DNA of 64,000 nucleotides from an uncultured Bacteroidales bacterium (GCA_964469155.1 CAYXXU010000009.1:2494-66493), one strand, 5' to 3'; positions 4,249-48,561 are shown, numbered from the stretch's first letter. Numbers and translations are program-made. The notes: generated by a model from the sequence alone, not told the origin.

Positions 4249-4287
4249 CGAAATCAAAGTTGAAATTTTTTGCTTGAAGTAAATACA

Positions 4288-5106: not shown

Positions 5107-5108
5107 TA

Positions 5109-26755: not shown

Positions 26756-26760
26756 AAAGA

Positions 26761-28496: not shown

Positions 28497-28500
28497 AACG

Positions 28501-28755
28501 ATGGAAGATTATAAAGCAATTAAATTGAAAGTGCTTACTATTATTGAAAAATATGCTTTTAACAAAGAACTTGTGCGCAATGCTGTGGATGAATCCAGAA
28601 TTGTTGCAGATCTAAAAATAAATTCAGCCCGAATTGTTGACATTATTTTGGATGTGGAAGAAATGTTTGATATTACCATAGATGATAATCATATTGAGAA
28701 AATGATCACCGTGAAAGATTCAGTGAACATTATTATATCTGCCAAGAAAGGCTGA
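28501..28755 (+). CDS. acyl carrier protein
   Basis: I prefer the ATG at 28501 (MEDYKAIKLK); the track start at 28420 lies inside the KAS gene. 84 aa. DLKINSARIVDIILDVEEMF places Ser at the DSL-equivalent phosphopantetheine site. Confidence 0.8.
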   Translation: MEDYKAIKLKVLTIIEKYAFNKELVRNAVDESRIVADLKINSARIVDIILDVEEMFDITIDDNHIEKMITVKDSVNIIISAKKG

Positions 28756-29393: not shown

Positions 29394-30348
29394 GCCAGAA
29401 TTAAGCATTGGAATAATAACTTATAATCAGGGAGTTTTTTTAAAAAGAACTATCGATTCCGTTCTGGAACAACAGACAACATACTCCATAGAAATTATTA
29501 TTTGTGATGATGCTTCAGAAGATAATACAGAAGCAATAGTACAAATTTTTCAGAGAGAACATCCCAAAATCATACAGTATTATAAAAACAACACCCGCCA
29601 GGGCCCACTTTTAAATGGAAAACAGTTATGGAGCCATGCAGGGGGAAAATACTTATGCTGGATTGATGCAGACGATTATTGGTGTTATTATGGTAAAATA
29701 CAAACTCAACTTGATTTTCTGGAAAATAATCCTGAATATGCCGGATGTTTTCACGATGCCCAAATCTTAAGCGATATTGATTCTGAGGCAAACATCGCGG
29801 AACAATTAAAAATTCAAACACACGGTCAATGGAAAAGCTATTCGCAGTTCAATACTTATTCCGCCGATTTTTTCCCATGGGACGTATTACAAAGGAAAAT
29901 CATTCCAACCGCTTCATTGGTTTTCCGAAGAAAAAATTTCGAAGCCTTTTTTGAACTTTTTTCCAATGTTGGTCTTTCTATCAGTTGGGCCCTGCATCTG
30001 GAGATCATTAAAAACAGTAAGTTCAAATATTTTAATGAGGCGTGGTCGGTGTATTTTGATCATGAAAAAGGATTTTCTAAAAGCGTAGATCTGTTGACTT
30101 TTAAACTCAATAATATCCGGATTTTACTGAAACTGCTTGATGATGATTATTATAAAACTATCGTTAAGGATGTATATAAAGCAATAGCCAATGAGTACTT
30201 TTACCTGTTGCATTGCAGCGATTCGAAAAGATTAAGCAAAAAAGAATACTATTCATATTGCAAAGCTTATAAAAAATGGATGGAAAAAGCGATAGAAGCA
30301 GAAATTATTAGTTTTAAAGAGTCGATTATTAATCACCGGGAACAATAG
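29386..30348 (+). CDS. glycosyltransferase family 2
   Basis: The start is uncertain: GTG at 29386, or the track ATG at 29341 which overlaps the PPTase gene. LSIGIITYNQG...ICDDASEDNT and WIDADDYW (DxD) are typical of GT-A/GT2. Confidence 0.8.
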   Translation: MSKPELSIGIITYNQGVFLKRTIDSVLEQQTTYSIEIIICDDASEDNTEAIVQIFQREHPKIIQYYKNNTRQGPLLNGKQLWSHAGGKYLCWIDADDYWCYYGKIQTQLDFLENNPEYAGCFHDAQILSDIDSEANIAEQLKIQTHGQWKSYSQFNTYSADFFPWDVLQRKIIPTASLVFRRKNFEAFFELFSNVGLSISWALHLEIIKNSKFKYFNEAWSVYFDHEKGFSKSVDLLTFKLNNIRILLKLLDDDYYKTIVKDVYKAIANEYFYLLHCSDSKRLSKKEYYSYCKAYKKWMEKAIEAEIISFKESIINHREQ

Positions 30349-30350
30349 GC

Positions 30351-32138
30351 ATGTGTGGAATCATAGGGAAGATAGATCACCGGCACGGGGTTCAAATTGA
30401 AGAATTTGTTTTACAAAGGGATTCAATGTTTTTACGTGGTCCTGATGATAAAGGGTTTTACTTTGATGCGGATAAAAAAATAGCTTTAGGCTATCGCAGG
30501 CTTTCGATAGTAGATCTGAGTCCCCAGGCTAACCAGCCGATGTCAAACGAAGATGAAACTCTTTTTCTGGTTTGCAACGGAGAAATATATAATTCGCCTG
30601 TTATACGGCAAATGCTTTTACATGCCGGACATACTTTTAAAAGCAAATCGGATTGCGAGGTAATATTGCATGGTTATGAAGAATGGGGCGTTGATGTTTT
30701 GAAAAGAATTGATGGCATGTTTGCTATGGGATTATGGGATGCTACGAAACAGGAATTATTGATCGCCCGCGACCGGTTTGGAATTAAACCCCTCTATTAT
30801 GAAAACAATGATGGATGCTTTACTTTTGCCTCCTCCTTGCAGGCAATTGGCTGCAGATCGGGCCATGGTAAAGAACTTTCATTGGATGCGATCTGCGATT
30901 ATCTCACATATCGTTACGTCCCCTCTCCGAAAACAATTTACAAAAATGTCGAAAAGCTTGAACCTGCTCATTATTTAATTTACGATAGAAACTCTAAAAC
31001 CAGGATCGGATGTTATTGGAATCTGCAATATAATCCCGTCATAGCAGATGATGAGGAGATACAAAAGGAATGTCAGATTTTGCTAAACAAATCTATTCAA
31101 TCACATTTACGAAGTGATGTGCCGGTGGGTTGTTTTTTAAGCGGAGGATATGATTCTACAGTGCTGGCTATGCTTATGAGAAAGCAAGACTACAATCCAA
31201 TTACCTTTAGTATTGGATTTGAGGGGTGGGAAGGCAGCGAGCTCAATCAGGCAATAATTACAGCCCAACAGCTGGATCTTTCAAATCAGTGTTCAATTTT
31301 AAACAAGGAAGACTTTATCACAGACGATATTATTTCTGCTTATGATGAGCCCATAGCAGATATCTCAATAATCCCCACTTTTGCTATAAGCCATTTAGCT
31401 TCCAGGAGTGTTAAAACAGTTTTTTCAGGTGAAGGAGCTGATGAACTTTTTGGAGGTTATGATTGGCATCATGAACTCTTTAAACAATATTCGAACAAAA
31501 CATTTATTGCTAAAGTCCTGACTCAAAAAAGAAAACTATCTCTTGGGGTTTATTCACAATTTATGGCGATGGGAGCGTTTGAAACGAATTCGCTTCGTCA
31601 ATTATTCCATACTCAATTCCATAATCACATTCCCGGTGATAGTTTTTGGTTCTATAAAAGACACTTTAACTCTGATCTGCCCATACCCAAATGTTTACAA
31701 TACCTGGATATAAAAACCTTTATGACGGAATTGGTTCTGACAAAAGTCGACAGGGCCTCCATGGCAAATTCGCTTGAAGTAAGAGTCCCTTATCTTGACA
31801 AAACGCTGTTTGAATTTGTTTTCAATCTTCCTCCTGAAAAATATTTTGATCCGCAATCCCAAAAACCATTGTTGGCAAATATATTGAGACCCATTTTGGG
31901 TGATGATTTTCTGAATCGCAAAAAGCAGGGCTTTGTTGGTCCTGATGCTTTTTATGATCATTTTGAGATGTATAAACTCATAATGGACGATTCGGTTTTA
32001 ATTGACCAGGGGATTATGAATCGAAAATATATTGACACCCTATTAACCTGTAAAGACCGCTGGCGACTATGGAAAATTGTAATTTTGGAGTTATGGGTTC
32101 AAAAAAACCGGAACAATATTAATCTTCCCACAGCATGA
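30351..32138 (+). CDS. asnB: asparagine synthase (glutamine-hydrolysing)
   Basis: 595 aa. MCGIIG N-terminal Cys nucleophile, LSGGYDST PP-loop, FSGEGADELFGGY. Confidence 0.9.
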   Translation: MCGIIGKIDHRHGVQIEEFVLQRDSMFLRGPDDKGFYFDADKKIALGYRRLSIVDLSPQANQPMSNEDETLFLVCNGEIYNSPVIRQMLLHAGHTFKSKSDCEVILHGYEEWGVDVLKRIDGMFAMGLWDATKQELLIARDRFGIKPLYYENNDGCFTFASSLQAIGCRSGHGKELSLDAICDYLTYRYVPSPKTIYKNVEKLEPAHYLIYDRNSKTRIGCYWNLQYNPVIADDEEIQKECQILLNKSIQSHLRSDVPVGCFLSGGYDSTVLAMLMRKQDYNPITFSIGFEGWEGSELNQAIITAQQLDLSNQCSILNKEDFITDDIISAYDEPIADISIIPTFAISHLASRSVKTVFSGEGADELFGGYDWHHELFKQYSNKTFIAKVLTQKRKLSLGVYSQFMAMGAFETNSLRQLFHTQFHNHIPGDSFWFYKRHFNSDLPIPKCLQYLDIKTFMTELVLTKVDRASMANSLEVRVPYLDKTLFEFVFNLPPEKYFDPQSQKPLLANILRPILGDDFLNRKKQGFVGPDAFYDHFEMYKLIMDDSVLIDQGIMNRKYIDTLLTCKDRWRLWKIVILELWVQKNRNNINLPTA

Positions 32139-33547
32139 ATACTTTTTCGCTGAAAGCGCTGATGAGAAAAAGAGGATACAGGAAATTTAACCTGAGCAGG
32201 ACTATTGTTCAATCCGAAAGGCTCTGTCATGCGCCTTTTAAAAGTCTGTTGTTTACCCAAAGCGGTGCTATAATGGTCTGTCATTTCAACAGAGGATATG
32301 TATTGGGAAATTATCCGGCGAATTCAATAAATGAAATTTTAGAGAGTGCGTCATTACAAAAACTGCAAAAACAACACAATTTCTATAACTTTCCGGAAAG
32401 CTGTCAATATTGCAAGATTGAAATTGAGAACCAACGTTATTATAACGCAGGGTGCAAAAAATATGATTATTTGGCAGAATATGGTAAACCGGAGGAAATT
32501 GTATCGCTGGAATTTCAGACGTCAAATGCCTGTAATCTCGAATGCATTATGTGCAGCGGAGAGTATTCCTCACTTATCAGAAAAAACAGAGAATGCGGAG
32601 TGGAATATCCGGATCCATATGATGATGTCTTTATTGAACAAATTAAACCTCTTTTAAGGTCAGTTAAATTTGCCAGCTTCACGGGTGGTGAGCCTTTTTT
32701 AAATCCTTTGTACTACAAAATATGGAAATTGATTGTTGAAATTAACCCACAAATAAAAATTACTATTTCGACCAATGGAACCCTATTAAATGATAAAATT
32801 AAAGAACTCTTTAATGCGCTTACTATTGATCTCACGCTTTCAATCGATTCTCTTGACAAAAAAACCTATGGTCAAATTCGAAAAAATGCCGATTTTGATA
32901 AGACCTTTGAAAATATCCAATATTTTATTGAAGTATCTAAGGCAAAACAAAGACTTTTTTCGATAAAATTTGTCATCATGAAGGGAAACATACAAGATGT
33001 TCCTGAACTTTTTGAATACTTTAATGAACAGAATGTTCAGATATATCCCAAGCTGGTATGGGTTCCTGTTGACCTGTCTCTTCGTTATGGAACTTCAGAG
33101 GAATTGAAGGAATGGATATATATATTGAAGCGGTGTCATTTAAACCGGAAACTGGAATATCAAAAGTTTAATTGTGAACGCTATTCTGAAATAATTTCTA
33201 CTTTGGAAAAATGGGAAGAAGAGCTGGCCCTGTTCACAAAAGAAAAACTAATACTTCTCACAACAGAGGATCTTACCGGTAAATTACATGAATTGTTGTG
33301 CAATTTTGTAAACAATGATTCCATGATTGAATACGACAAAAGAATTAAGTTGTTGAATTTTGCAGAGGAACTACTACATTTTATTACCCGTAGTAATATA
33401 CCAGAAAAAGAAATGCAAAATTTTCTAGCCTATTTACTCAGTCTTCCCAGATATTTGCTGGTGAACGAATTTTACAGAATGAATGCGGAAAAATTCGTGA
33501 ACAGGTTAAAAGTTAAAAAGTCTTTCAATAAGAACAGAACATGTTAA
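32135..33547 (+). CDS. radical SAM protein with N-terminal twitch/SPASM-like Cys motif (family copy 3 of 9)
   Basis: 470 aa. CHAPFKSLLFTQSGAIMVC, SCQYC, TSNACNLECIMC, TGGEPFL, STNGT, LSIDS. ATGA overlap with asnB. Confidence 0.9.
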   Translation: MNTFSLKALMRKRGYRKFNLSRTIVQSERLCHAPFKSLLFTQSGAIMVCHFNRGYVLGNYPANSINEILESASLQKLQKQHNFYNFPESCQYCKIEIENQRYYNAGCKKYDYLAEYGKPEEIVSLEFQTSNACNLECIMCSGEYSSLIRKNRECGVEYPDPYDDVFIEQIKPLLRSVKFASFTGGEPFLNPLYYKIWKLIVEINPQIKITISTNGTLLNDKIKELFNALTIDLTLSIDSLDKKTYGQIRKNADFDKTFENIQYFIEVSKAKQRLFSIKFVIMKGNIQDVPELFEYFNEQNVQIYPKLVWVPVDLSLRYGTSEELKEWIYILKRCHLNRKLEYQKFNCERYSEIISTLEKWEEELALFTKEKLILLTTEDLTGKLHELLCNFVNNDSMIEYDKRIKLLNFAEELLHFITRSNIPEKEMQNFLAYLLSLPRYLLVNEFYRMNAEKFVNRLKVKKSFNKNRTC

Positions 33548-34863
33548 AAATAAAAGACATATTCCACTTTGGACAAAACAAGGCTTATATAAAATGTAAT
33601 GCGGCCGAAAAAAGTTTGCGTTTTGGCATTGGGGGAAGAGTTTCTGTCTGTTGTCATAACCACAAGGACATTGTTGGGAGTATTCCACAAAATTCCATTA
33701 TGGAAATATGGCATGGACCCGCAATAAAATCTTTGAGACATACACTTCAAAAAAAATATTCTCAGGGTTGTACCTATTGCATTCATGAAGGGCAATCAGT
33801 ACATTCTTCGGGAAGTTCGGCCCTTTACGAACGTTATGAATCAAATCCCGTTCATCCTGTCATCTTGGATTTCAAGGCCGACAACTCATGCAATTTAGCC
33901 TGTATTATGTGTTCCGGGCTTTCTTCAACAGGTTTGAGAGCAAAGGAAAGCAAGTGCACTATGAACCCATACGACAACAATAAATTTCTCAGTGAACTTC
34001 AGGAAATCATACCCTTTATTAATGAAGCCCGTTTCAGTGGCGGAGAGCCGTTCTTATCAGAATTGTACTTTAAGATATGGGAAAGCATTATTCAGAAGAA
34101 TCCCCAATGCAAAATTGTTGTACAAACCAATGGGACAATTCTTAACCCAAAAGTCAGGGATATAATGGAAAGAGGGAATTTCAATATCAATTTATCTATT
34201 GATTCATTTCAAAAAGACACTTACGAAAAAATAAGACGCGGCGGTTCATTTGATATCATTTTAAAAAACATCAGCTATTTTAAAGAATATTGTCTGGGCC
34301 AATCCAGATTCTGGGGTATGACCAGTTGTGCAATGATTGAAAATAGTGCCGAATTTTCAGATATCATAAATAACTGGAATCTTCACCAGGCAAACGGATG
34401 GTTTAGCGTGGTGTGGTTTCCACCAAAAAACGCAATATGGACATTAAGCGAAATGGAAATTGAAAAAATTTCAGAACAGCTCAATAATATTAGTTTTATT
34501 GGTGATGCCGAATACTTAATCAACAATTCGCGGGCGTTGGAGATACTGAAAACCATGATGAAGCAGCAATTGAAGCTTTCGAAACTTCATCATGATCCAC
34601 CTGTATCAATTGATGGCGAGGCTTTTTATACAACGGTAACAGATTATTTTTCGAAAGTGCTAAAACAAACAATAGAATTTCAGCAAATCGAAACTAAGCT
34701 TCAACAATACTTTTCACAAAATGGAGATTCCTTATATAACGCGACGAGTTTTAAAAAAATTCGTAACTTTACCTCAGAAGAACATTTTTTCGACTTATTA
34801 TCAATGATTGATAAAGAAAGTATATCCGAATTGTTCTTTCCTTTTGTAACAAAACATAAATGA
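33541..34863 (+). CDS. radical SAM protein with N-terminal twitch/SPASM-like Cys motif (family copy 4 of 9)
   Basis: 440 aa. CNAAEKSLRFGIGGRVSVCC, GCTYC, ADNSCNLACIMC, SGGEPFL, QTNGT, LSIDS, AIWTLS. 7-nt overlap with the upstream gene. Confidence 0.9.
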   Translation: MLKIKDIFHFGQNKAYIKCNAAEKSLRFGIGGRVSVCCHNHKDIVGSIPQNSIMEIWHGPAIKSLRHTLQKKYSQGCTYCIHEGQSVHSSGSSALYERYESNPVHPVILDFKADNSCNLACIMCSGLSSTGLRAKESKCTMNPYDNNKFLSELQEIIPFINEARFSGGEPFLSELYFKIWESIIQKNPQCKIVVQTNGTILNPKVRDIMERGNFNINLSIDSFQKDTYEKIRRGGSFDIILKNISYFKEYCLGQSRFWGMTSCAMIENSAEFSDIINNWNLHQANGWFSVVWFPPKNAIWTLSEMEIEKISEQLNNISFIGDAEYLINNSRALEILKTMMKQQLKLSKLHHDPPVSIDGEAFYTTVTDYFSKVLKQTIEFQQIETKLQQYFSQNGDSLYNATSFKKIRNFTSEEHFFDLLSMIDKESISELFFPFVTKHK

Positions 34864-36329
34864 ATACCGGCATAAAACATTTCGCGGCAAAAGCCATAGG
34901 TATCCTCAACAGATTTCGTTTTATGGCATCCCATGGTATAAAGGATGATGGAACTTATAACCCGCTTCCCGGCAAAGTAATTCACGATTTTAACAAAACC
35001 CGTATGCTGGGTCCTCAAAAATGGTTATGCTATGCTCCGTTTAATATGATCTACTTTGCATTTAACGGAGAAATGATTGCCTGTTGTCACAACCGCAAAC
35101 ATATTATGGGCAGATACCCTGAACAAAGCATTGAAGACATATGGGGTGGTGCCAAATATGAAATACTTCGGGAACACATTCGTCATAACGATCTGTCATA
35201 TGGTTGTGATGTTTGTAAAAACGCACTGATTGCAGGGAATTACGATGGCGCTAAAAATGGTCTCTATGACAGATATGGTAGTCGTAGCTATCCTCAAATC
35301 ATGGAATTCGAACTTGACAACCTATGCAACCTTGCCTGCGTTATTTGCAATGATAATTTTAGTTCCGGCATAAAACCACTGGAATTAAAGACTCAGAACC
35401 CATCTCCCTATGATGCTGAGTTTGTAAAACAAATTACTCCTTACATTCCAAAATTGAAAGAAGCAAAATTTTATGGTGGCGAACCGTTTTTAATTAATTT
35501 ATATTATAACATCTGGGAGAAGATGCTGGAAATGAATCCTAAAATAGAAATTCTTATCCAGACAAATGGAACCGTTCTTAACGAAAAAGTAATAAAATTA
35601 CTTGAAAGAGGAAGATTTAATATAAACATATCGATAGACTCATTACATAAAGAGAATTTTGAAAAGATCCGTAAAAATGCCAATTTTGAAGAGACAATGG
35701 AAAATGTTGCTTTTTTCATAGATTACTGTAAACAGAAGGGGACTCACCTAGGGATCATTCCCACTCCCAACCGATTAAACTGGCAGGATATACCTGAAAT
35801 AACGAATTGGGCAACTTCAATTGGTGCCAAAGTCTATTTCAATACGCTGATCACCCCTCTTGAATTGGCATTATGGAACCTTCCACAGAAAGATATTGAA
35901 ACCATTTACAGCCAATTATCCGCTAAAGATATCCAAACCATAGGACTGGCTGGAAAAGAAAATGCCAGACATTATAAGGATTTTTTACATCAAATACAGG
36001 GGTGGAAGGTAAACAAAACCATCACAGAAAACGCTAAAACGAAAATTAGTCTTTTTGATCTTAAACAAATGAAAGATAAGTTTATTCTGGAACTCAGCAA
36101 AACCTTACATGAGAAAGAAAGGGATGAACTCATGCTGCTTTTTGAACAAACACTTTCTTCATTTGACGAAAATATAAACCATGATCTGTTTTTTGCTGTT
36201 ATCAGAAAAGTACCCATTGAAATTGTAGTTAAAGAAATTCAAAAAAGAGATCTTGAACACTTAAAAAAAAATATGGGAAAAAAAATATATGAAGGTAGTG
36301 TGGAATATGAAATAATTCGGGTTAATTAA
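34860..36329 (+). CDS. radical SAM protein with N-terminal twitch/SPASM-like Cys motif (family copy 5 of 9)
   Basis: 489 aa. C57-x12-G-x4-C75 (CYAPFNMIYFAFNGEMIAC), C116-x2-C119, then C156-x3-C160-x2-C163 (CNLACVIC), YGGEPFL, QTNGT, ISIDS, LALWNL. Confidence 0.9.
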   Translation: MNTGIKHFAAKAIGILNRFRFMASHGIKDDGTYNPLPGKVIHDFNKTRMLGPQKWLCYAPFNMIYFAFNGEMIACCHNRKHIMGRYPEQSIEDIWGGAKYEILREHIRHNDLSYGCDVCKNALIAGNYDGAKNGLYDRYGSRSYPQIMEFELDNLCNLACVICNDNFSSGIKPLELKTQNPSPYDAEFVKQITPYIPKLKEAKFYGGEPFLINLYYNIWEKMLEMNPKIEILIQTNGTVLNEKVIKLLERGRFNINISIDSLHKENFEKIRKNANFEETMENVAFFIDYCKQKGTHLGIIPTPNRLNWQDIPEITNWATSIGAKVYFNTLITPLELALWNLPQKDIETIYSQLSAKDIQTIGLAGKENARHYKDFLHQIQGWKVNKTITENAKTKISLFDLKQMKDKFILELSKTLHEKERDELMLLFEQTLSSFDENINHDLFFAVIRKVPIEIVVKEIQKRDLEHLKKNMGKKIYEGSVEYEIIRVN

Positions 36330-36330
36330 T

Positions 36331-37716
36331 ATGAACGCATTTGCAACAAAAATTGATAACTGGGTTAACCAAATAGCACGATGGTCCAATCCCTTTCATA
36401 AGGATATATTTTGCAAAGCTCCTTTCAATACCCTTTTTTTTTCAATGACAGGTGATGTATATTTTTGCTTAAGTAATCGTATTCAAATTGCAGGTAAATA
36501 TCCCCAAAATTCTATCAAGGATATTATTGAAGGGCAAATGGTTCAGGACCTAAGAAAATATTTTACAGAACACAATGGAATGCCCGGCTGTGAGTATTGT
36601 AAAGAACAAATTGATCTGGGGAATTATGACGCAGCATTCAATCATTACAGCAATGTCAGAAGCAAAAAGGGAGAGATTTCTGTAATAGAGTTTGAATTAT
36701 CTAACCGTTGCAACCTTCAATGTATGATGTGCAGTGAACAATATTCTTCAATACACCAGGGGAATAGCAAAAACGTAAAGATCCCCTACGATGATCAATT
36801 TATATTTCAGATTGCCCCATACCTTAAAAACCTGAAAAAAGCCAGTTTTAGAGGAGGAGAACCCTTCCTTATTCCAATTTATTACAAATTATGGGATAAG
36901 TTATTAGAGCAGAATAAAAGCGTAGCCATTGGAATTACTACTAACGGAACCATTTATAATTCGAAGATAGAAACCTATCTCCAAAGCCGTCAATTTCAAA
37001 TCAACATATCTGTTGATACTTTGCAAAAAGAGTCCTTCCAGGCAATTAGGGTTAATGGAGAATTTGATCAATATTTAAAAAATATTATGACCTTTCTTGA
37101 GTTGTCAAAAAAAGGAGTTTGCGGTCTGAGTATCTGTACATGCCTTATGGTTAACAACTGGAAAGAAATACCTTCCATATTTAGTTTTTGCAATGAAAAC
37201 AGATTGACAATCCATATTAATTATGTAGAATATCCTTTAAATGTTTCTATACAGAGTTTGCTGCCAAATGAGATTGAAGCTATTATATCATATTTGAAGG
37301 ACCATAAAAATATTAATGATTACAACATTACAATTTACGATTCGATATTGTCTATTTTGAAGTCATGGGTAAATAACAGAAAACCAAACACAAAAACAAA
37401 TATAAGTGATATTGTCAATTCAATTTTACCAATGACCATTAGCCTTTCAGAACTTCACCAACAAAAGCAAAGTTTTTTTAATAAAATTGAATTATATTCT
37501 CATTCACAACAGTCAGTTGATTTGTTAGAAAAATTTGAAAAACTCGAAAAACATTTTAAAAACGCTAATGACATTTTTTTTCTTTATTTCATATTGGATC
37601 ATATCCCTGAAAAAATTGTAATCGACAACATCAGTCATTTTTCAGTTGAAAACCTAATAATTGAATCTGAAGAGTTGATTGAAATCAGCAAACAAAAATT
37701 TTCAATAAATGGCTAA
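36331..37716 (+). CDS. radical SAM protein with N-terminal twitch/SPASM-like Cys motif (family copy 6 of 9)
   Basis: 461 aa. CKAPFNTLFFSMTGDVYFC, GCEYC, SNRCNLQCMMC, RGGEPFL, TTNGT, ISVDT. Confidence 0.9.
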   Translation: MNAFATKIDNWVNQIARWSNPFHKDIFCKAPFNTLFFSMTGDVYFCLSNRIQIAGKYPQNSIKDIIEGQMVQDLRKYFTEHNGMPGCEYCKEQIDLGNYDAAFNHYSNVRSKKGEISVIEFELSNRCNLQCMMCSEQYSSIHQGNSKNVKIPYDDQFIFQIAPYLKNLKKASFRGGEPFLIPIYYKLWDKLLEQNKSVAIGITTNGTIYNSKIETYLQSRQFQINISVDTLQKESFQAIRVNGEFDQYLKNIMTFLELSKKGVCGLSICTCLMVNNWKEIPSIFSFCNENRLTIHINYVEYPLNVSIQSLLPNEIEAIISYLKDHKNINDYNITIYDSILSILKSWVNNRKPNTKTNISDIVNSILPMTISLSELHQQKQSFFNKIELYSHSQQSVDLLEKFEKLEKHFKNANDIFFLYFILDHIPEKIVIDNISHFSVENLIIESEELIEISKQKFSING

Positions 37717-39160
37717 AAAGATAGTAGAAAAGATATCGCATTTATTTAATTCAAAAACAAAACGTCCCTTGCCTCTCTGTTATGCTCCGTTCAATAATTT
37801 ATTGATCGATCAGCAAGGCTGTATAAAAATTTGCTGTCATAACATATCATATATTTTAGGTAGATTTCCTATTGACAGAATTAATGATGTCTGGTTTGGC
37901 AAAATGCGACAATCTATAACAAATCAATTCCTTTTTGATGAAACTCCCGATTCGTGTAATAGTTGCATAAAGAACGGTTTAAATATTGACTTGTTGAGCA
38001 CCAAAACAGCATACTCAAAAAGAAAAAATTTAATCAATTTCAATCAATATCCTTATCAAATTGATTTTTTACTTGACAATAATTGCAATCTGGATTGTAT
38101 AATGTGTTCTTCAAACATATCCACTTCTTCAACTAATACTGATGTATATGCTCTTGAAAAAGTTAATTTCAATGAAGATTTTTTCACTCAAATAAAACCA
38201 TTTCTTGAAAAAGGACGTTTTTTCGTTTTTGGGGGTGGCGAACCTTTTCTCATTCAAATCTATTCAAAGATGTGGAAGTATATTTATGAAAAAAATTCTT
38301 CTGCAACGATCTATGTTCAAACCAATGGAACTATTCTAACTGACCAAATAAAGAAAACCATTGAAAAATATAAAATAAATATTGGAATCTCTATTGATTC
38401 GGTTAATAAGGAAAATTATGAAAAGATAAGAAGAAATGCTTCTTTTGAGAAAACGTTCGAAAATATCGAATATTTCATACAATACTCTGATTCGCAAAAG
38501 AAAAACATGACTCTAATGGTCACACCTATGATCATAAATGCAGATGAAATACCACATATTTTTGAATATGCCAACAATAATAACCTTCATTTCTCATTAA
38601 GTATACTAGACAGGCCTGTTCATTTGGCCATATGGTCACTGCCTTCAAAAGAGATTTTTAAACTGATAGATAAATACAAATCTTTTAAGTTTTTGACTGA
38701 TAGTTCTCAGAATCTGATAAAAAACAATATTAAGGCATTTCAGATTTTTATTTTACTTGTTGAAAAATATGCCCGGCGAAAAGTTTTCATTGAACAACAT
38801 CAACAAAAGATATTATCGCAAATCATTAAACTATCAGAGTATTTTGCTGAAAATTATGAGACAATACTTAAATTCAGTATTGAAAATTCATCCATTGAAA
38901 AATATAAAAAAGAGGCTTTTCATAATCGCGCCAAAGATTTAATTAATCAATTGATTGAAAAAAACGCCACCCTATTCGATAACAAACTCTATTTGTATTC
39001 ATATTTTATCAACAAAGAAATGAGTTCGTTTGTCAACAATCTTATTAATTTTGACGACTATACTATAAGCCAATTTTTTCAGGAAAAAATTTATGAGCAT
39101 AAGATATTTTTTGACACCCTTTCCTATGATCATATAATTGATTTGGATTATTATGAGTGA
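37709..39160 (+). CDS. radical SAM protein with N-terminal twitch/SPASM-like Cys motif (family copy 7 of 9)
   Basis: 483 aa. CYAPFNNLLIDQQGCIKICC, SCNSC, DNNCNLDCIMC, GGGEPFL, QTNGT, ISIDS, LAIWSL. 8-nt overlap with the upstream gene. Confidence 0.9.
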   Translation: MAKKIVEKISHLFNSKTKRPLPLCYAPFNNLLIDQQGCIKICCHNISYILGRFPIDRINDVWFGKMRQSITNQFLFDETPDSCNSCIKNGLNIDLLSTKTAYSKRKNLINFNQYPYQIDFLLDNNCNLDCIMCSSNISTSSTNTDVYALEKVNFNEDFFTQIKPFLEKGRFFVFGGGEPFLIQIYSKMWKYIYEKNSSATIYVQTNGTILTDQIKKTIEKYKINIGISIDSVNKENYEKIRRNASFEKTFENIEYFIQYSDSQKKNMTLMVTPMIINADEIPHIFEYANNNNLHFSLSILDRPVHLAIWSLPSKEIFKLIDKYKSFKFLTDSSQNLIKNNIKAFQIFILLVEKYARRKVFIEQHQQKILSQIIKLSEYFAENYETILKFSIENSSIEKYKKEAFHNRAKDLINQLIEKNATLFDNKLYLYSYFINKEMSSFVNNLINFDDYTISQFFQEKIYEHKIFFDTLSYDHIIDLDYYE

Positions 39161-40640
39161 ACTGTTATCCTCCTTTAAAAAATGGTTACTGGTTGTTATT
39201 CGCTTCTATAGAAAAAGTGCTGTCACACCTACAAATATTATAGAGGAATCTTTACAAAGACAATACAGTGAATATAATGTACAACGCTTTTATGGCCCTC
39301 AAAAATATTTTTGTTATGCTCCTTTTGGGAGTATGTTCATTAGCTATAGTGGCAGGGTGTCACCATGTTATGCCTGTAAAAATGAGGAATCGCTTCAAAG
39401 CAGGTCTTTAGATGAAATCTGGAATGGCCCTGTTTTTTCTGAACTGAGAAATCAATTTAAAACCGGAATCGTTCCGGAAGCCTGTTCTTTCTGCAAGGAC
39501 CATCTGCTTCAAAAAAACTATGGAAGTATTTTAGCCAACAAATATGACCACTATCTTTTATCGGCCGTTGGCAATCCGGTAATTGCCGAACTGGAATTAT
39601 CAAACCTATGCAACCTGGAATGCATTATGTGTTCTGGAAACCTTTCATCGGGCATACGGAAAAACAGGGAACAGTTGCCCCCTGTTATAAACCAACTCCC
39701 CGCAGATTTTATTCATCAGTTCGAAAAGTTTATTCCCAAACTAAAAACCATTGAATTGACAGGGGGCGACCCCTTCCTTATAGATGAATACTACCAGATA
39801 TTAAATGAAATTGAGCGATCAAATCCCAAAATTGAGGTGTTAATAACTACCAATGCAAATACCATAACCCCGAAAACGGAGGCATTATTAAAAAAAAGAC
39901 TCCTTTTAAGCTTTAATATATCCATCGATTCCCTGGATGAAATCATTTATGCCGAAATCCGCCGCAAAGGATCACTCAAAACCGTCATGAGAAACATTGA
40001 GTATTTTTCGGAATACACAAAAAAGAATAACACATCACTTGGGTTTTTAGTATGTCCGCTGAAACAGAACTGGAAAGAACTTCCATCGTTTGTTGATTTT
40101 GCCAATAAATATCATGCGACACTTAGTTATCATGTAGTTTTCAAACCTTCAGAGCATGCTTTATGGTCATATTCTTCAGCAACATTACATGAAATTTATC
40201 TCTACTTAGCGTCCTTTTCATTTATAGGTAATGATTTTAACAGCAATATCAATGCCCGCAGTTATAATGCACTGGTAATTTTAATAGAATCATGGTATAA
40301 GAAGGCGATTACACGGGAAGCAAAATATCAAAATCTGATATTTGATTTGCAAAAACAGGTTGAGGGAGCTAAAAGATCTTTGCGAACCAACTTAAACGAT
40401 GATTACCTGTTCCATAAAATCGAAAAGACTATAGGCTTATTAAATATTTCTGAATTCCCCGAATTGGTTTTTCTTGAATTATATAAGAAAACAAAAACGG
40501 AAATAGAAGAGGGATTAAGGCAATTTTCGGATGAAGAATTAATTCGAAAACTGCAACTTTATCATCAGGAGCAATATTCTGCTTACTTTTATGACTTACA
40601 ACTGAGTGATAACGATAAATATTTAAACAATTCCCTGTAA
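39153..40640 (+). CDS. radical SAM protein with N-terminal twitch/SPASM-like Cys motif (family copy 8 of 9)
   Basis: I prefer the ATG at 39153 (MSELLSSF) to the track start at 39138. CYAPFGSMFISYSGRVSPC, ACSFC, SNLCNLECIMC, TGGDPFL, TTNAN, ISIDS, HALWSY. Confidence 0.9.
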   Translation: MSELLSSFKKWLLVVIRFYRKSAVTPTNIIEESLQRQYSEYNVQRFYGPQKYFCYAPFGSMFISYSGRVSPCYACKNEESLQSRSLDEIWNGPVFSELRNQFKTGIVPEACSFCKDHLLQKNYGSILANKYDHYLLSAVGNPVIAELELSNLCNLECIMCSGNLSSGIRKNREQLPPVINQLPADFIHQFEKFIPKLKTIELTGGDPFLIDEYYQILNEIERSNPKIEVLITTNANTITPKTEALLKKRLLLSFNISIDSLDEIIYAEIRRKGSLKTVMRNIEYFSEYTKKNNTSLGFLVCPLKQNWKELPSFVDFANKYHATLSYHVVFKPSEHALWSYSSATLHEIYLYLASFSFIGNDFNSNINARSYNALVILIESWYKKAITREAKYQNLIFDLQKQVEGAKRSLRTNLNDDYLFHKIEKTIGLLNISEFPELVFLELYKKTKTEIEEGLRQFSDEELIRKLQLYHQEQYSAYFYDLQLSDNDKYLNNSL

Positions 40641-40644
40641 GTCC

Positions 40645-41847
40645 ATGAAAAAGGAAAATGGATTCGTATATGTTGTTTGCGGAGGCGATAAACACATCAA
40701 TACTCTTAATACGTCAATAAAATATCTAAAGAGATTTTCGAAAAATAAAATAATCGTTATTACTGATTCTTCCCGAAACCAAATCAAAATAGCACATGAT
40801 TTAATTATTGACATTAAAACCGATTCGAAATACACCCACCATCAGGCGGCTATTTTTCTGAAAACATCGGTTCACAAATATCTTGACATGGATAATGCCT
40901 TGTATTGTTATCTGGATTCTGATGTGATCGCTTTATCAGAAGAAGTGGATGAAGTTTTTAACCAGACTTTTGACACCATAGGATTTTGTCCGGACAATAT
41001 TACTTTTGATTATTTTAGTCCTTATGCCATGAATTGCAGCTGCATTGATGAAAGTATCCAAAACCGGGAAAAATTGATGCGCACCTCTGAAGAATATGAT
41101 AAATTGCATGGGGAATGGTCCTCGTTTATAAAAGAAAATGGTGGAACTGTTTTAAATGACAAACTTGAAAAAATAAAAAAACCGTTGCCTGAAAACTGGG
41201 GGAAACTTGTCTGGTTCCAAATTCAGAAAACATTGCCATTTTGTAAAACCATCCGTCTGTTTGATCATCTTATGGATAAAAAAAGTAAACAATGGAAAAA
41301 CAAAGAGGGAAAGGTGGTTCTTTATCCTGTTGAATCGTATGAAAGTTTTATCCATAGCCACACCGGGTTTGTTTATCACAAAAATGATAACTTTTGGAGC
41401 AAGGCAGACGACCCATATGATGTTACCATTCCGCGTTGTGGGCATTTGCATAAAGCCATCAGCGAGACATTTGGGGTAAATATTTCTCCTGTATACTGGC
41501 AACATCCTAATGGGGGGGTATTTTTATTTGATGCAGGGTCGTCTGATTTTCTGAACTTTTGGCATGAAAATACCATAGAGATATTCAGTAACTCAACATG
41601 GAAAATCAGGGATCAGGGAACATTAGCTTATGCTTTCTGGAATTTTTCGCTTCAAAAAAGATCATATCTCCCCAAAGAATTTAATTTTATTGCGGACTAT
41701 TATTCGAAAAACTCAGTTCTTGATTATGATGGAACTTTTAATATTAATGGGAGAAAAATCAAACCCCATTTTATTCACATATTTCATCACTGGGACGACA
41801 AAGATTGGCCTGTATGGAACTCTATTCTTTCATTTTTACATAAATAG
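40645..41847 (+). CDS. hypothetical protein, possible GT-A fold nucleotide-sugar transferase
   Basis: 400 aa. N-terminal FVYVVCGGDKHINTLNTSIKYLKRFS...IIVITD and YCYLDSDVIAL (DxD-like) resemble GT8-like/GT-A enzymes. The rest is unrecognised. It sits inside the rSAM array with 4-nt and 1-nt gaps. Confidence 0.35.
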   Translation: MKKENGFVYVVCGGDKHINTLNTSIKYLKRFSKNKIIVITDSSRNQIKIAHDLIIDIKTDSKYTHHQAAIFLKTSVHKYLDMDNALYCYLDSDVIALSEEVDEVFNQTFDTIGFCPDNITFDYFSPYAMNCSCIDESIQNREKLMRTSEEYDKLHGEWSSFIKENGGTVLNDKLEKIKKPLPENWGKLVWFQIQKTLPFCKTIRLFDHLMDKKSKQWKNKEGKVVLYPVESYESFIHSHTGFVYHKNDNFWSKADDPYDVTIPRCGHLHKAISETFGVNISPVYWQHPNGGVFLFDAGSSDFLNFWHENTIEIFSNSTWKIRDQGTLAYAFWNFSLQKRSYLPKEFNFIADYYSKNSVLDYDGTFNINGRKIKPHFIHIFHHWDDKDWPVWNSILSFLHK

Positions 41848-41848
41848 A

Positions 41849-43372
41849 ATGAACAATATCTCGGGAAAAATACTTTACTCATCGGCAAAGGCCGTGAATC
41901 ATTTCAGAAGTGTCTTTTATAAAAAATACAGCCCAATTGGTGAAAATAAATCCCTTGAAAAAGAACGCATCCATTACTACAATAAACATCGGCCTTTTGG
42001 TCCATTACCCAAATTATGTTATGCTCCCTGGACCAATCTGTTTTTTAATACCGATGGCAAAGCATCTGTATGCTGCAAGAACACCAAAGTGCTTATGGGA
42101 GAATATCCAGCTTCTTCGATTCACGATATCTGGTTTAATTCGGGAGTGAATGATCTCAGAAAAAAAATTCAATGTAATGACGTTTCTTTTGGTTGTTATA
42201 AATGCAGGGATTCTATTACTCAGAAGAATTTTAGCACCTTAACTTCAACACAATTCGACAAATATGGATTATTTCCTCTGTCGAAATACCCTCGTATTAT
42301 TGAATTTGAACTAAGCAACCGTTGTAATTTGGAATGCATTATGTGTTCTGAAAGAGTTTCCTCGGCTATTGCATTGGCCAAGAACCAAAATCCTAATATC
42401 GAATCAAGATATGATCAGTCATTTATTCACCAACTTAAAGAGTTCATACCACATCTAGATAAAGCAAAGTTTTCAGGTGGTGAACCATTTTTAATACCTA
42501 TTTATTATAAAATTTGGGAAGAAATCATAAAACTGAATCCTTCAACAAAAATATTTGTGCAGACAAATGGTACGATCTTAAATGAAGAAATCAAAAAAAT
42601 GGTGCGTAAGCTTCATTTTCGTATAAATATATCACTTGATTCTGTCGATAAGAACAATTATGAATTTATTCGTAAAAATGCTAGTTTCGAATTAACCATG
42701 AGTAACATTGCCTGGTATGGAAAAAACACAACCCAACTTGGTATCCTTACAACTCCATTCCGGCAAAACTGGCATGACGTTCCTGATATTATCCGTTTTT
42801 GCAATAAAAACCAATATCATTTCAATATTAGTCCTGTTTATCAACCTAAAGAGTTGGCACTATGGAGTCTCGATATCAGATCACAAGACGAGATTATAAA
42901 TTTTTATCAATCAGAATCATTATCCTCAGGAAACTGGCTTGAAAAGAAGAATAAACAAGTTTTTCAGGAGTTAATCAATTCAATCAAAGATTGGAGAACC
43001 CGAAAAGTTCAGAATGATAACTTTGATCAGGATTTCACAAACAATATTGTTGAACAGGAAAAAGCAGAAGGTTTGCTTGTCAAGAAAAAATTCTCATTAC
43101 AAGCTATTAATCTTCTCATGAATGAATGTATTGAAAACTTAATAAAGACAGGTCTCTCATCTGAAGAAATAAATACATTAACATGTATGAGTGAAAATGT
43201 AAGAAAAGAACAATATCCGTCATTACCATCATTCTCCATCTACTTAAAGCTAAAAGAAATCAAGCCCACTGATATTTTGAATGTAATACGGACTACAGCT
43301 TCTGAGGGTATTTATAAGAAAATAGGATTGTTATATGAGTCAATAATTGAAGATTATGAAATTGACTATTAA
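41849..43372 (+). CDS. radical SAM protein with N-terminal twitch/SPASM-like Cys motif (family copy 9 of 9)
   Basis: I prefer the ATG at 41849 (MNNISGK); the track start at 41630 overlaps the upstream gene by 218 nt. CYAPWTNLFFNTDGKASVCC, GCYKC, SNRCNLECIMC, SGGEPFL, QTNGT, ISLDS, LALWSL. Confidence 0.9.
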   Translation: MNNISGKILYSSAKAVNHFRSVFYKKYSPIGENKSLEKERIHYYNKHRPFGPLPKLCYAPWTNLFFNTDGKASVCCKNTKVLMGEYPASSIHDIWFNSGVNDLRKKIQCNDVSFGCYKCRDSITQKNFSTLTSTQFDKYGLFPLSKYPRIIEFELSNRCNLECIMCSERVSSAIALAKNQNPNIESRYDQSFIHQLKEFIPHLDKAKFSGGEPFLIPIYYKIWEEIIKLNPSTKIFVQTNGTILNEEIKKMVRKLHFRINISLDSVDKNNYEFIRKNASFELTMSNIAWYGKNTTQLGILTTPFRQNWHDVPDIIRFCNKNQYHFNISPVYQPKELALWSLDIRSQDEIINFYQSESLSSGNWLEKKNKQVFQELINSIKDWRTRKVQNDNFDQDFTNNIVEQEKAEGLLVKKKFSLQAINLLMNECIENLIKTGLSSEEINTLTCMSENVRKEQYPSLPSFSIYLKLKEIKPTDILNVIRTTASEGIYKKIGLLYESIIEDYEIDY

Positions 43373-43420
43373 TTACTTGTGGTTATTATTTCCCCCAGAA
43401 CCAATTCTAAAATTATAAAG

Positions 43421-43930
43421 ATGAATATTATACTTATTGATGAAAAAGACAACATTACCGGATACAATGAAAAGTCATTGGTACATAGAGAGGGACTATT
43501 GCATAGGGCATTTTCCATTTTTATTCTTAATTCAAAAAAGGAGTTGTTGATTCAGCAAAGAAAACATGATAAATACCATTCCGGGGGATTATGGTCCAAT
43601 ACATGCTGCGGACATTTTACTTCAGGAATAGATATGGTAAAACAGGCCGAAAAACGTTTGCATGAAGAAATGGGAATTCATTGTCAGTTGAATTGGATTT
43701 TTAATTACAGATATTCCGTATTGCTTAATAATGGACTGAAAGAGAATGAACTTGTTTATGCTTATTCAGGATTTTGTGATGAAAATCCACTCCCTGATCG
43801 GGAGGAAGTTAATGATTGGAGGTGGGTGAATTTAATTAGTTTGAAGGAAGATCAGAATCAGAATCCCCAACAATATACATTTTGGTTTACCTACTCTTTT
43901 AATGATCTTTACAGTAATATTTATAAATAA
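43421..43930 (+). CDS. idi: isopentenyl-diphosphate delta-isomerase, type 1 (Nudix fold)
   Basis: I prefer the ATG at 43421 (MNIILIDEKD). LHRAFSIFILNSKKELLIQQRKHDKYHSGGLWSNTCCGH is the hallmark IDI-1 block, including the catalytic Cys context. Confidence 0.85.
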   Translation: MNIILIDEKDNITGYNEKSLVHREGLLHRAFSIFILNSKKELLIQQRKHDKYHSGGLWSNTCCGHFTSGIDMVKQAEKRLHEEMGIHCQLNWIFNYRYSVLLNNGLKENELVYAYSGFCDENPLPDREEVNDWRWVNLISLKEDQNQNPQQYTFWFTYSFNDLYSNIYK

Positions 43931-43952
43931 TAGGGGATATTATCCGGCACCA

Positions 43953-45176
43953 ATGATCTTTAAAAAAAAGAATACACATTTCATAGTTTTCAGTTCTCTA
44001 CTGATAATTTGTATTATAGCCCATGTGTTGTTTTTTATTATTTCCGGATCGTATTTGATCACCTCAGGTTTGTTTGTTATTATACTTATTTCTCTGTTAA
44101 TATATTATCTTATTGGTTTTTTATCATCCGTTTTTGGGTTGAAAAGGAAACTAAATGAAACGCGTCTTATTGTTTTTACGACAGCCATTTGTTTATGTAT
44201 TATTGAATTATTATTTGTGCTTACCGGTTATAAAAGCACTAGTGTGGAAAAAAGAAATCTTTTTTACTATTCTTCACAATATGATCCTGTTAAAACAAAA
44301 CGTTTTCATTTATGGAAAGAAGACCATCCCTTAAAGACAGCAGAATATTGCTATTACCGGACTTTAAATTCAGACAGCTTGTCAGATAAAGAACATGTTG
44401 TTGAAAAAAATATAAATGAATATAGAATTATAGGGTTAGGCGATTCATTTACTGAGGGAGATGGGACTGATGCTGATTCTACCTGGCTTAAATTTCTGGA
44501 AAGAAATGTTGCAATAAAATATCCTTTAAAAAAGCAGCTCACTTATTTTAATGCAGGTGTTTGTGGAAGTGACCCTTGTTTTGAATATATCCTACTAAGA
44601 GAAAGATTGTTGAAATATAATCCGGATTTGGTGATATTGGCCATTAATATTTCAGATATTAATGATGTTATTATACGCGGCGGAATGGAACGTTTTAAAC
44701 CGGATGGTAGTGTTCATTATAAGAATGCCCCCTGGTGGGAACCCCTTTATGCCATGAGCCATATTTCGCGTTTGTTTTTTTCAGGACTAGGCTATAACGA
44801 ACTTCTTTTTAAAGAAAATGAAAGTAATTTTAATAAGGCCAAACAGAAAATCACAGAGATAATTCTTATTTTTAAAGAATTTTCCGAAAGAAATCACTTT
44901 AAGCTAATTGTAATATTTCATCCTTATCAGGGGGAAATTAACACGAACCATTTGGAATTACATAATGTAATGGAAAAAGTTTCAGAAGAATACAAAATTG
45001 ATGTTTTGAACATGCCGGAATATTTCAAAGAAAAAGAAAAAATAAATTCTGCTAACAGTAGTGAATATTTCTGGAAGTATGATGGCCACCACAATGCAAA
45101 AGGTTATGCTGCCTTTGCCCGTGGCGTGGAGTGGAAATTAAAACAAATGGGAGTTATTGACTCCTTATCGAAATGA
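43953..45176 (+). CDS. membrane-anchored SGNH/GDSL hydrolase family protein
   Basis: I prefer the ATG at 43953. Three N-terminal TM segments, block I IIGLGDSFTEGDG, block V YDGHHNAKGY. Confidence 0.7.
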   Translation: MIFKKKNTHFIVFSSLLIICIIAHVLFFIISGSYLITSGLFVIILISLLIYYLIGFLSSVFGLKRKLNETRLIVFTTAICLCIIELLFVLTGYKSTSVEKRNLFYYSSQYDPVKTKRFHLWKEDHPLKTAEYCYYRTLNSDSLSDKEHVVEKNINEYRIIGLGDSFTEGDGTDADSTWLKFLERNVAIKYPLKKQLTYFNAGVCGSDPCFEYILLRERLLKYNPDLVILAINISDINDVIIRGGMERFKPDGSVHYKNAPWWEPLYAMSHISRLFFSGLGYNELLFKENESNFNKAKQKITEIILIFKEFSERNHFKLIVIFHPYQGEINTNHLELHNVMEKVSEEYKIDVLNMPEYFKEKEKINSANSSEYFWKYDGHHNAKGYAAFARGVEWKLKQMGVIDSLSK

Positions 45177-48555: not shown

Positions 48556-48561
48556 AATATT

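Follow-up and report, generated by a model that had tools for sequence, protein, structure and literature searches.

Radical S-adenosylmethionine (SAM) enzymes seldom have glycans or lipid-linked intermediates as substrates, and new chemistry has come to light with each one that has been characterised. BtrN, the 2-deoxy-scyllo-inosamine dehydrogenase of butirosin biosynthesis (PDB 4M7S/4M7T), is a protein of about 250 amino acids (aa) that is encoded by a single-copy gene in an aminoglycoside cluster and carries its auxiliary iron-sulfur domain, of the twitch type, after the catalytic core; the SPASM domain of anSME is complete and holds two auxiliary clusters; and the archaeal glycerol dialkyl glycerol tetraether (GDGT) enzymes GrsA/GrsB and GDGT-MAS/Tes are paralogous radical-SAM proteins, each of which acts at a defined position of a repetitive isoprenoid. 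The closest family model, NF033640 of NCBIfam (N_Twi_rSAM, 'twitch domain-containing radical SAM protein'), has no assigned function. Here we analyse a stretch of 64,000 nucleotides from an uncultured Bacteroidales bacterium (GCA_964469155.1 CAYXXU010000009.1:2494-66493; this whole stretch is hereafter the window) that encodes nine diverged radical-SAM paralogs, seven in a tandem array and two dispersed, within a gene cluster that also contains a Wzm/Wzt exporter. We know of no described Wzm/Wzt-type locus with such an array. The interpretation that we prefer, albeit tentatively, is that the paralogs are radical enzymes that tailor, each in a site-specific way, a membrane-anchored and exported glycoconjugate, with chemistry at sugar C-H bonds favoured.

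A first-pass annotation of the window had described seven intact open reading frames (ORFs), with junctions of -4, -7, -4, +1, -8 and -8 nt from asnB through array copy 6, and had taken them for old, diverged paralogs rather than recent duplicates. All seven were found at exactly those coordinates and on that strand (Table 1), the junctions were reproduced, and the catalytic motifs proved complete in nine of the nine copies. In an all-versus-all blastp comparison, the nine proteins share 27-38% identity over ~300-500 residues (E 1e-36 to 1e-94), as expected of the diverged paralogs first described, and the same comparison recovers both dispersed copies on the minus strand. Downstream of copy 6, an embedded gene for a 400-aa protein follows after 4 nt, and copy 7 starts 1 nt beyond that gene. 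Although the ORF of copy 7 is open from 41630, the start at 41849 is favoured by the lengths of its orthologs (507-509 aligned residues). The asnB stop overlaps the start of copy 1 by 4 nt, and the two genes are predicted to be translationally coupled; by the same kind of evidence, namely overlapping stops and starts, the radical-SAM ORFs appear to form a tightly packed, co-transcribed operon. A scan for sigma-70 promoters and terminators gave no meaningful enrichment, the sigma-70 model being one that does not cover Bacteroidota promoters.

The CX3CX2C and GGE motifs and the Pfam Radical_SAM (PF04055) scores of the array copies (48.8-72.9 bits against a threshold of 29.5) place these proteins in the radical SAM superfamily. 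All nine copies show the cysteine spacing Cx17Cx38-41Cx2C ... Cx3Cx2C together with GG[ED]PF, and the nine-sequence alignment is invariant at the four N-terminal cysteines, the CX3CX2C cysteines, the GG-PF, TN, S-D and IR elements and several Asn and Pro positions; the conservation of CX3CX2C and GGE, on which the first description depended, is thus confirmed by alignment. The motif [AG][LI]W[STN][LY] occurs in five of the seven array copies and in seven of all nine, exactly as first counted. In every copy, the auxiliary Fe-S domain (approximately aa 19-120) lies ahead of the radical-SAM core, and none has the canonical SPASM/twitch order with the auxiliary domain C-terminal to the core. The SPASM model PF13186 is matched above threshold, N-terminal to the core, in six of the seven array copies (in copy 1, at 31.9 bits over aa 31-94, alongside a Radical_SAM score of 67.9 bits); copy 5 gives no Pfam SPASM match, yet retains all four twitch cysteines. 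Because just four extra cysteines are conserved, the auxiliary domain appears to be a twitch, of half size and with one cluster, rather than a full SPASM domain, and two [4Fe-4S] clusters per enzyme are predicted. The cobalamin-binding domain PF02310, the mark of the B12-dependent class B, is absent from all nine copies; it occurs in four other genes of the cluster.

Searched against PDB sequences, the nine-copy profile finds its best match in the auxiliary-cluster domain of BtrN (E 9e-12, 36.6 bits), with the twitch cysteines aligned on C169, C187, C232 and C235. The copies share with BtrN the spacing of 17 residues after the first cysteine, the CxxC pair and a set of four auxiliary ligands that are all cysteines, and both are carbohydrate-pathway enzymes by context. 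Unlike in BtrN, however, the twitch precedes the core and a C-terminal helical domain is present, and the match is confined to the twitch domain instead of extending over the whole enzyme. Of the two comparisons that had been proposed, the one with BtrN held for the extra cysteine motifs, in the form of an N-terminal twitch with one auxiliary cluster, whereas the one with the SPASM domain of anSME did not: the copies have four extra conserved cysteines, not a seven-cysteine SPASM, and score 32-48 bits against TIGR03942, the cut-off of which is 349.

An AlphaFold2 model of copy 3 (mean predicted local distance difference test score, pLDDT, 94) shows a hairpin-plus-helices domain at the N-terminus, then a partial TIM barrel and, at ~343-482, a bundle of helices, the C-terminal domain being modelled with a pLDDT of about 86-97. 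A Foldseek search of the PDB with this full model matched the generic radical-SAM core (BlsE, SkfB, viperin, MoaA, anSME; TM-score about 0.35) and returned no structure that covers the whole architecture or the C-terminal bundle. The best core matches, BlsE (cytosylglucuronate decarboxylase; PDB 7VOB), viperin, MoaA and anSME (E 3e-8 to 3e-6), align over the core alone, at a TM-score of about 0.35 of the query length and 13-19% identity; in the profile search of PDB sequences, the cores likewise match SkfB, anSME, viperin and MoaA weakly. Of the checks suggested with the first description, structure prediction gave matches to the generic core alone, and the connection of the twitch with BtrN comes from the sequence profile. 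A hydropathy scan of the nine proteins detected no transmembrane-like segments.

All nine copies have NF033640 as their best NCBIfam match. Those of the array score 135.5-166.2 bits (151.1 for copy 1), all under the curated cut-off of 170, in alignments that run from profile positions 2-5 to 360-381 of 398, and every other NCBIfam model stays far under its own threshold. Since relatives from other Bacteroidota score 154-193 bits (two of ten pass the cut-off), the clade straddles the edge of the model, and by these scores the copies can be regarded as a peripheral clade at the edge of an uncharacterised subfamily. They share with NF033640 the placement of the twitch domain at the N-terminus, ahead of the radical-SAM core, and differ from it by the addition of a copy-specific C-terminal helical domain beyond the model. 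The first-pass annotation could name no characterised pathway with so many consecutive radical-SAM paralogs, and this stands: a full-text literature search found no account of the family, of its gene module or of a comparable radical-SAM array, the single apparent match proving to be an entry in a reference list, and no characterised relative or solved structure of the whole architecture was found for the clade. It is not wholly unknown, however, given its proximity to NF033640. Both the superfamily and the cofactor domain of the twitch type are familiar; what is undescribed is the order of the domains, the putative specificity domain, the conserved module and the arrays of many paralogs.

Each array copy has a reciprocal best match at the equal array position in up to seven other loci, with 42-61% identity over the full length (36% in one pair). 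For copy 1, the positional orthologs in four loci (L001, L006, L011, L022) are 45-56% identical over the full length; copy 2 has its reciprocal best matches at the equal position of the same four loci; and the orthologs of copy 6 are 45-61% identical, again over the full length. Paralogs, in contrast, align over the first 300-350 residues alone. When the C-terminal 117-149 residues of one paralog are compared with those of another, local alignment scores are 28-80, as opposed to 100-337 in 23 of 26 pairs of positional orthologs; in most of the positional-ortholog pairs tested, the segments are 30-50% identical over their whole length, and the three pairs that involve the more distant metagenome-assembled genome (MAG) L001 score 29-74. 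Because the tails are conserved among positional orthologs but not between paralogs, the C-terminal ~120-150 aa are conserved, folded domains with a putative role in specificity. The first description of the last ~150 aa as unrelated between copies and helical was accurate, but they are not of low complexity, being 30-50% identical in most pairs of positional orthologs. Each array position thus has its own full-length ortholog group and its own C-terminal domain, and the earlier proposal of position-specific tailoring enzymes fits these data.

The duplications appear to be ancient. By core identity, with neighbour-joining distances considered alongside, the copies are 33-50% identical to sequences from other orders and 34-40% to their best paralog in the window; since the core is as close or closer to other orders as to the paralogs, the duplications predate the divergence of these lineages. 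For example, the core of copy 3 is 50% identical to the lone copy adjoining UbiA and AsnB in locus L054, compared with 40% to its best paralog, and the single copy in compact loci of other lineages resembles copy 3 most.

That the array might be an assembly artefact, a doubt raised with the first description, is contradicted by the data: the neighbouring copies 2-4 came out identical in the assemblies of three separate runs, and several further Bacteroidales MAGs have syntenic arrays, one of these MAGs being a closed, single-contig chromosome of 4.86 Mb. Because independent runs agree and the arrays are syntenic in other MAGs, an artefact is excluded. The family is large. An initial search returned 642 homologs at E <= 1e-10, and about 1,678 cluster representatives at 50% identity were found at E <= 1e-30; among the matches listed, all taxon labels are from Bacteroidota, the names being merely generic. 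A scan of GTDB species representatives yielded 141 relatives, of which the best 80, corresponding to 77 distinct loci, all in MAGs, were kept; these best 80 belong to Bacteroidales, Chitinophagales, Saprospiraceae, Flavobacteriales, Crocinitomicaceae and two Desulfobacterota-type MAGs. The locus search used an alignment of copy-3 orthologs, and the set is accordingly biased toward relatives of copy 3. Arrays of this kind, a search for which had been suggested together with a survey of copy number, recur, with 1 to 9 family copies per locus (within 10 kb on either side). The array in the window is one end of this 1-to-9 copy-number range in a module that is conserved across Bacteroidota. Two proteins of 870-981 aa (P0241, P0251) contain two complete N-twitch radical-SAM units per chain; they could represent genuine tandem fusions or, alternatively, gene calls that read through from one array copy into its neighbour.

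Profile searches over a non-redundant set of 80 loci were used to assess the composition of this module; the resulting co-occurrence counts are lower bounds, many contigs being short. The most frequent partner is a GT8-like glycosyltransferase (47 of 80 loci), followed by SGNH proteins (42, with up to five copies), AsnB (33, typically in the order UbiA-AsnB-N-twitch), a GT32-like glycosyltransferase (33), a divergent UbiA (31), Wzt (18) and Wzm (12). The compact order UbiA, AsnB, N-twitch protein, GT8-like, GT32-like, SGNH is seen in L017 and L047 and, without the GT32-like gene, in L012, L035 and L078. UbiA is fused to the N-twitch protein in three members of separate 50%-identity clusters (P0055, P0274, P0347), and GT8-like/GT32-like (a frequent combination), GT8-like/GT32-like/UbiA and GT32-like/UbiA fusion proteins were found as well; these fusions tie UbiA, both glycosyltransferases and the radical-SAM protein together. 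CMAS-like methyltransferases are present in related loci, and the block of beta-ketoacyl synthase (KAS) and acyl carrier protein (ACP) genes is found in Bacteroidales relatives alone (5 of 80 loci). In loci of the Chitinophagales type, among them L045, L060, L064, L081 and L082, arrays of up to five SGNH/GDSL paralogs adjoin the radical-SAM genes, and multi-paralog arrays of tailoring enzymes therefore seem to be a general feature of the module.

The GT8-like partner is represented in the window by the protein encoded inside the array between copies 6 and 7. It has no Pfam or NCBIfam match, and its profile finds noise alone among PDB sequences, the fold search being the informative one: the AlphaFold2 model (pLDDT 93.9) matches, in Foldseek, the catalytic domain of UGGT, glycogenin, LARGE1, XXYLT1 and WbbM. 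Among its 399 homologs, about a dozen are fused to a PF04488 glycosyltransferase. Judged from the model, it is a GT-A glycosyltransferase. The gene does interrupt the array, as first noted, but it is better described as a conserved partner than as an intruder.

Compared with O-antigen and capsule loci of the Wzm/Wzt type, the locus in the window has in common the Wzm/Wzt pair, several glycosyltransferases, an aminotransferase/acetyltransferase pair, a carbamoyltransferase and AsnB, and a G+C content below that of its flanks. It differs from them in its 16 radical-SAM genes and in having a UbiA core enzyme; no initiating transferase of the WecA or WbaP type was detected in the window locus.

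From the observed architecture, paralogy, positional orthology, synteny and gene fusions we infer, with due caution, the site specificity, the lipid-linked glycan substrate and the reaction type. Under the model that we favour, the nine proteins would be soluble cytoplasmic radical-SAM enzymes of a single undescribed clade, each binding the SAM-cleaving [4Fe-4S] cluster (CX3CX2C, GGE) and one fully Cys-ligated auxiliary [4Fe-4S] cluster in the front-placed twitch. UbiA, AsnB, the GT8-like and GT32-like proteins, membrane-anchored SGNH proteins and the Wzm/Wzt exporter would constitute the core of a pathway in which a lipid-anchored glycoconjugate is built on the cytoplasmic face of the membrane and then exported by Wzm/Wzt. 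All copies would carry out one type of radical step, each at its own site of the product under assembly, and the C-terminal domain of the copy would choose that site. A hydrogen atom would be taken from a sugar C-H, with ketone oxidation or epimerisation to follow, and the auxiliary cluster would serve as an electron route, as in BtrN. A different site for each copy seems most likely, given the age of the duplications and the conservation of every array position. On a broader and slightly more speculative view, the loci could specify an undescribed envelope pathway in which circularly rearranged twitch radical-SAM enzymes carry out a site-selective modification, new to the superfamily, of a polyprenyl-linked glycan or isoprenoid anchor, with interchangeable C-terminal selectors and with the copy number, 1-9, corresponding to the degree of decoration.

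Several considerations weigh against the glycoconjugate model. Substrate and chemistry are assigned by analogy, for a clade in which no member is characterised; the core is marginally similar to that of BtrN (10.9 bits, independent E 1.4), and the Foldseek matches, at a TM-score of about 0.35, are to the generic radical-SAM core alone. A homolog that passes the NF033640 cut-off stands alone in an unrelated gene context, and the family is therefore not restricted to this pathway. The pointer to co-transcription consists solely of overlapping stops and starts, and the co-occurrence counts, as lower bounds, come from a set of loci biased to copy-3 relatives. Finally, the UbiA fusions and the adjacent isopentenyl-diphosphate (IPP) isomerase could mean that a lipid, not a sugar, is the substrate, and the same could be said of the KAS/ACP block, the lipid-like weak matches of the B12-dependent radical-SAM proteins and the CMAS-like methyltransferases.

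These last observations make up much of the case for the main rival explanation, under which the paralogs would modify different positions of a UbiA-linked isoprenoid or acyl anchor by cyclisation, C-C coupling, desaturation or hydroxylation. We consider this unlikely on balance, but it is the alternative to be taken most seriously. Its analogy is with the site-specific radical-SAM enzymes of archaeal tetraether lipids, which exemplify the concept of position-specific paralogs, and a repetitive chain would readily account for many paralogs with differing 'ruler' domains; the linkage to UbiA, a core neighbour (31 of 80 loci) that is fused to N-twitch proteins in three separate 50%-identity clusters, indeed points to a prenyl-containing product. 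In the window, moreover, a type-1 IPP isomerase gene lies 6 nt past copy 7, and a block of KAS, ACP, dehydratase, short-chain dehydrogenase/reductase (SDR) and phosphopantetheinyl transferase (PPTase) genes lies directly upstream of the asnB-array unit. The B12-dependent radical-SAM proteins have as their best, sub-threshold matches HpnJ, HpnR and the 'lipid biosynthesis B12 rSAM' family, which is reminiscent of hopanoid or ladderane lipids, and CMAS-like methyltransferases occur in related loci. However, UbiA is no more constant a partner than the GT8-like (47/80) and GT32-like (33/80) proteins, the window alone has the IPP isomerase, and KAS is found in 5 of 80 loci. The similarity to GDGT-MAS is weak (E 6e-5, TM-score 0.32), and the Tes model is matched far below its cut-off (36 bits against 450). 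For the twitch domain, the nearest counterpart is found in an enzyme that oxidises a carbohydrate. UbiA-family enzymes can, besides, act on polyprenyl phosphate in glycan pathways, as Rv3806c does.

Alternatively, the paralogs could act on soluble nucleotide-sugars before transfer, each producing a different rare sugar (keto, epimer, deoxy or decarboxylated). This explanation, which we regard as improbable, accommodates the fact that the best core neighbours, BlsE, viperin and MoaA, act on nucleotides or nucleoside sugars, as well as the presence in the cluster of genes for amino sugars, encoding a DegT-type aminotransferase and a NeuD/PglD-type acyltransferase; conceivably, AsnB and BlsE-type chemistry would both take place on uronic acids. 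But the matches to BlsE, viperin and MoaA reflect the generic core alone, at 13-19% identity, fusion to the integral-membrane UbiA puts at least some members at the membrane, and no nucleotidyltransferase or 4,6-dehydratase is found among the conserved partners. Maturation of a ribosomally synthesised and post-translationally modified peptide (RiPP), with the paralogs as SPASM/twitch maturases that crosslink or epimerise the peptide and AsnB as a lasso or macrolactam cyclase, is very improbable. SPASM/twitch radical-SAM proteins are typical RiPP maturases, and the copies do match WgkB, GggB, PapB, CcpM and other NCBIfam models weakly (35-59 bits against cut-offs of 340-650), as AsnB does a lasso cyclase model (202 bits against 525); AsnB, however, passes the equivalog cut-off of the true glutamine-hydrolysing asparagine synthase, and the conserved partners are glycosyltransferases, UbiA, SGNH proteins and Wzm/Wzt. 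A small-ORF scan found no plausible precursor peptide in any gap of the cluster, the array itself offering no room for one, and the Pfam and NCBIfam annotation of the window contains no RiPP recognition element, leader peptidase or peptide-type exporter. Lacking a precursor and having partners of the glycan type, this reading was rejected. The least credible explanation is that the copies are redundant or decaying duplicates or an assembly artefact. Their common architecture and tandem position might suggest as much, yet the catalytic motifs are intact in all nine copies, which are 27-38% identical, and position-specific orthologs, including their C-terminal domains, are kept across MAGs; amplification or artefact was rejected on the grounds of positional orthology and of independent assemblies that include the closed chromosome.

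Nine naturally diversified, position-conserved proteins with a common core and swappable C-terminal domains offer a system for the study of site selectivity in radical enzymes, and their N-terminal twitch provides a naturally occurring case in which the position of the auxiliary cluster can be related to function. The module, conserved and uncharacterised, belongs to Bacteroidota of digesters, sludge, groundwater and sediments, where these bacteria are abundant. It probably specifies a major surface glycolipid or polysaccharide that is heavily tailored, and such a product would be relevant to recognition by phages and predators, to the properties of biofilms and flocs, and to biomarker lipids. 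The system should be of interest to specialists in radical enzymes and in envelope glycans.

The cluster as a whole covers about 47 kb (roughly 2982-50443; Table 1). Its G+C content is 28-37% (over about 4-46 kb), compared with 38-42% in the flanks, a pattern consistent with a variable or horizontally exchanged surface-glycan locus. The flanks encode proteins sorted by the type IX secretion system and TonB-dependent receptors, typical of Bacteroidota.

Table 1. Array copies, dispersed copies and other features of the cluster, in window coordinates
Feature	Coordinates	Strand	Remarks
Wzm (ABC-2 permease) and Wzt (ATPase), glycan-type ABC exporter	4270..6329	+	Pfam; recurrent in related loci
Further radical-SAM genes	6338-7861, 9673-11043, 15149-16510, 16994-18436	+	
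AsnB-like paralog	7881-9635	+	584 aa; partial GATase/synthetase match; without N-terminal catalytic Cys (starts MKSF)
Dispersed N-twitch radical-SAM paralog	11126..12487	-	453 aa; 26-nt overlap with upstream gene for 766-aa membrane protein
Polytopic membrane protein	12462-14762	-	766 aa; about 14 hydrophobic segments; no Pfam/NCBIfam match
Further radical-SAM genes	18441-19340, 24778-25890, 53472-54467	-	
Divergent UbiA-family membrane prenyltransferase	19358..20209	-	Pfam UbiA; NDxxD and DxxxD motifs
Dispersed N-twitch radical-SAM paralog	21362..22888	-	508 aa; 1.1 kb from UbiA gene
Operon upstream of asnB: SDR, FabA/ApeI-like dehydratase, KAS II, ACP, PPTase-like, GT2 glycosyltransferase	25943..30348	+	
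Acyl carrier protein	28501-28755	+	84 aa; longer TTG ORF also at site
PPTase-like protein	28755-29393	+	212 aa; 1-nt overlap with ACP; orthologs with weak ACPS match
AsnB-type glutamine-hydrolysing amidotransferase	30351..32138	+	Pfam Asn_synthase, GATase
N-twitch radical-SAM paralog, array copy 1	32135..33547	+	470 aa
N-twitch radical-SAM paralog, array copy 2	33541..34863	+	440 aa
N-twitch radical-SAM paralog, array copy 3	34860..36329	+	489 aa
N-twitch radical-SAM paralog, array copy 4	36331..37716	+	461 aa
N-twitch radical-SAM paralog, array copy 5	37709..39160	+	483 aa
N-twitch radical-SAM paralog, array copy 6	39153..40640	+	495 aa from ATG; alternative TTG start 39138
Predicted GT8/GT24-like, GT-A fold glycosyltransferase inside array	40645..41847	+	400 aa; invariant DxD (D91, D93)
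N-twitch radical-SAM paralog, array copy 7	41849..43372	+	507 aa
Type-1 isopentenyl-diphosphate isomerase	43379..43930	+	6 nt downstream of copy 7; NUDIX-hydrolase-like appearance
SGNH/GDSL protein	43902..45176	+	Pfam; four N-terminal hydrophobic transmembrane-like segments
Carbamoyltransferase, DUF5989 and SxtJ-like trio	46687-49217	+	
DUF5989 gene	48562-48711	+	49 aa
SxtJ-like membrane protein	48864-49217	+	117 aa
GT32-like (Gly_transf_sug, DXD) glycosyltransferase	49586..50443	+	Pfam

In total, 16 radical-SAM genes are present in the 64 kb, 15 of them inside the cluster and one (53472-54467) beyond its end. The seven that do not belong to the N-twitch clade are four B12-binding proteins of class B, one protein of 299 aa next to UbiA and two proteins with a canonical, C-terminal SPASM domain. 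The best matches of the four B12-dependent proteins, all sub-threshold, are HpnJ, BchE, HpnR, PhpK and the 'lipid B12 rSAM' family.

AsnB itself scores 442 bits against TIGR01536, well above the cut-off of 267. The second AsnB-like protein, to judge from its missing N-terminal cysteine, is probably a degenerate, non-glutaminase paralog, and an AsnB pair of similar kind is present in locus L080. No NCBIfam subfamily can be assigned to UbiA, all matches being below 45 bits, and NCBIfam likewise provides no class for the 766-aa membrane protein, the PPTase-like protein or the GT32-like protein. For the 766-aa protein, possible roles are those of a GT-C-type glycosyltransferase, polymerase or ligase with polyprenyl-linked donors. 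Upstream of asnB, the block from the SDR gene to the GT2 gene has an equal gene order in the Bacteroidales relatives L001 and L086, and its ACP, PPTase-like, SDR, FabA-like and KAS genes have the appearance of a dedicated mini fatty-acid- or polyketide-type set. The IPP isomerase passes two equivalog cut-offs (NF002995, 137.4 bits against 127; TIGR02150, 107.5 bits against 105.8). Because it is absent from all 86 other related loci, it is a genome-specific accessory; its presence hints at a supply of dimethylallyl diphosphate or prenyl units for the UbiA of the cluster. Additional cluster genes encode a GT4 glycosyltransferase, a hexapeptide transferase, a DegT aminotransferase, a NeuD/PglD-type acyltransferase and a GT9 glycosyltransferase.

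The trio of carbamoyltransferase, DUF5989 and SxtJ-like genes also adjoins the array in L086. Between this trio and the GT32-like gene lies an intergenic tandem repeat (49295-49475) that can be described with a period of 21 nt (8.6 copies, 72% matches) or of 63 nt (91% matches) and that yields spurious repetitive ORFs on both strands. Just past the end of the cluster, after a gene for a class II aminoacyl-tRNA synthetase, the minus strand encodes a type II toxin-antitoxin pair (52864-53372), which consists of a YoeB-type toxin of 85 aa and a Phd/YefM antitoxin of 84 aa.

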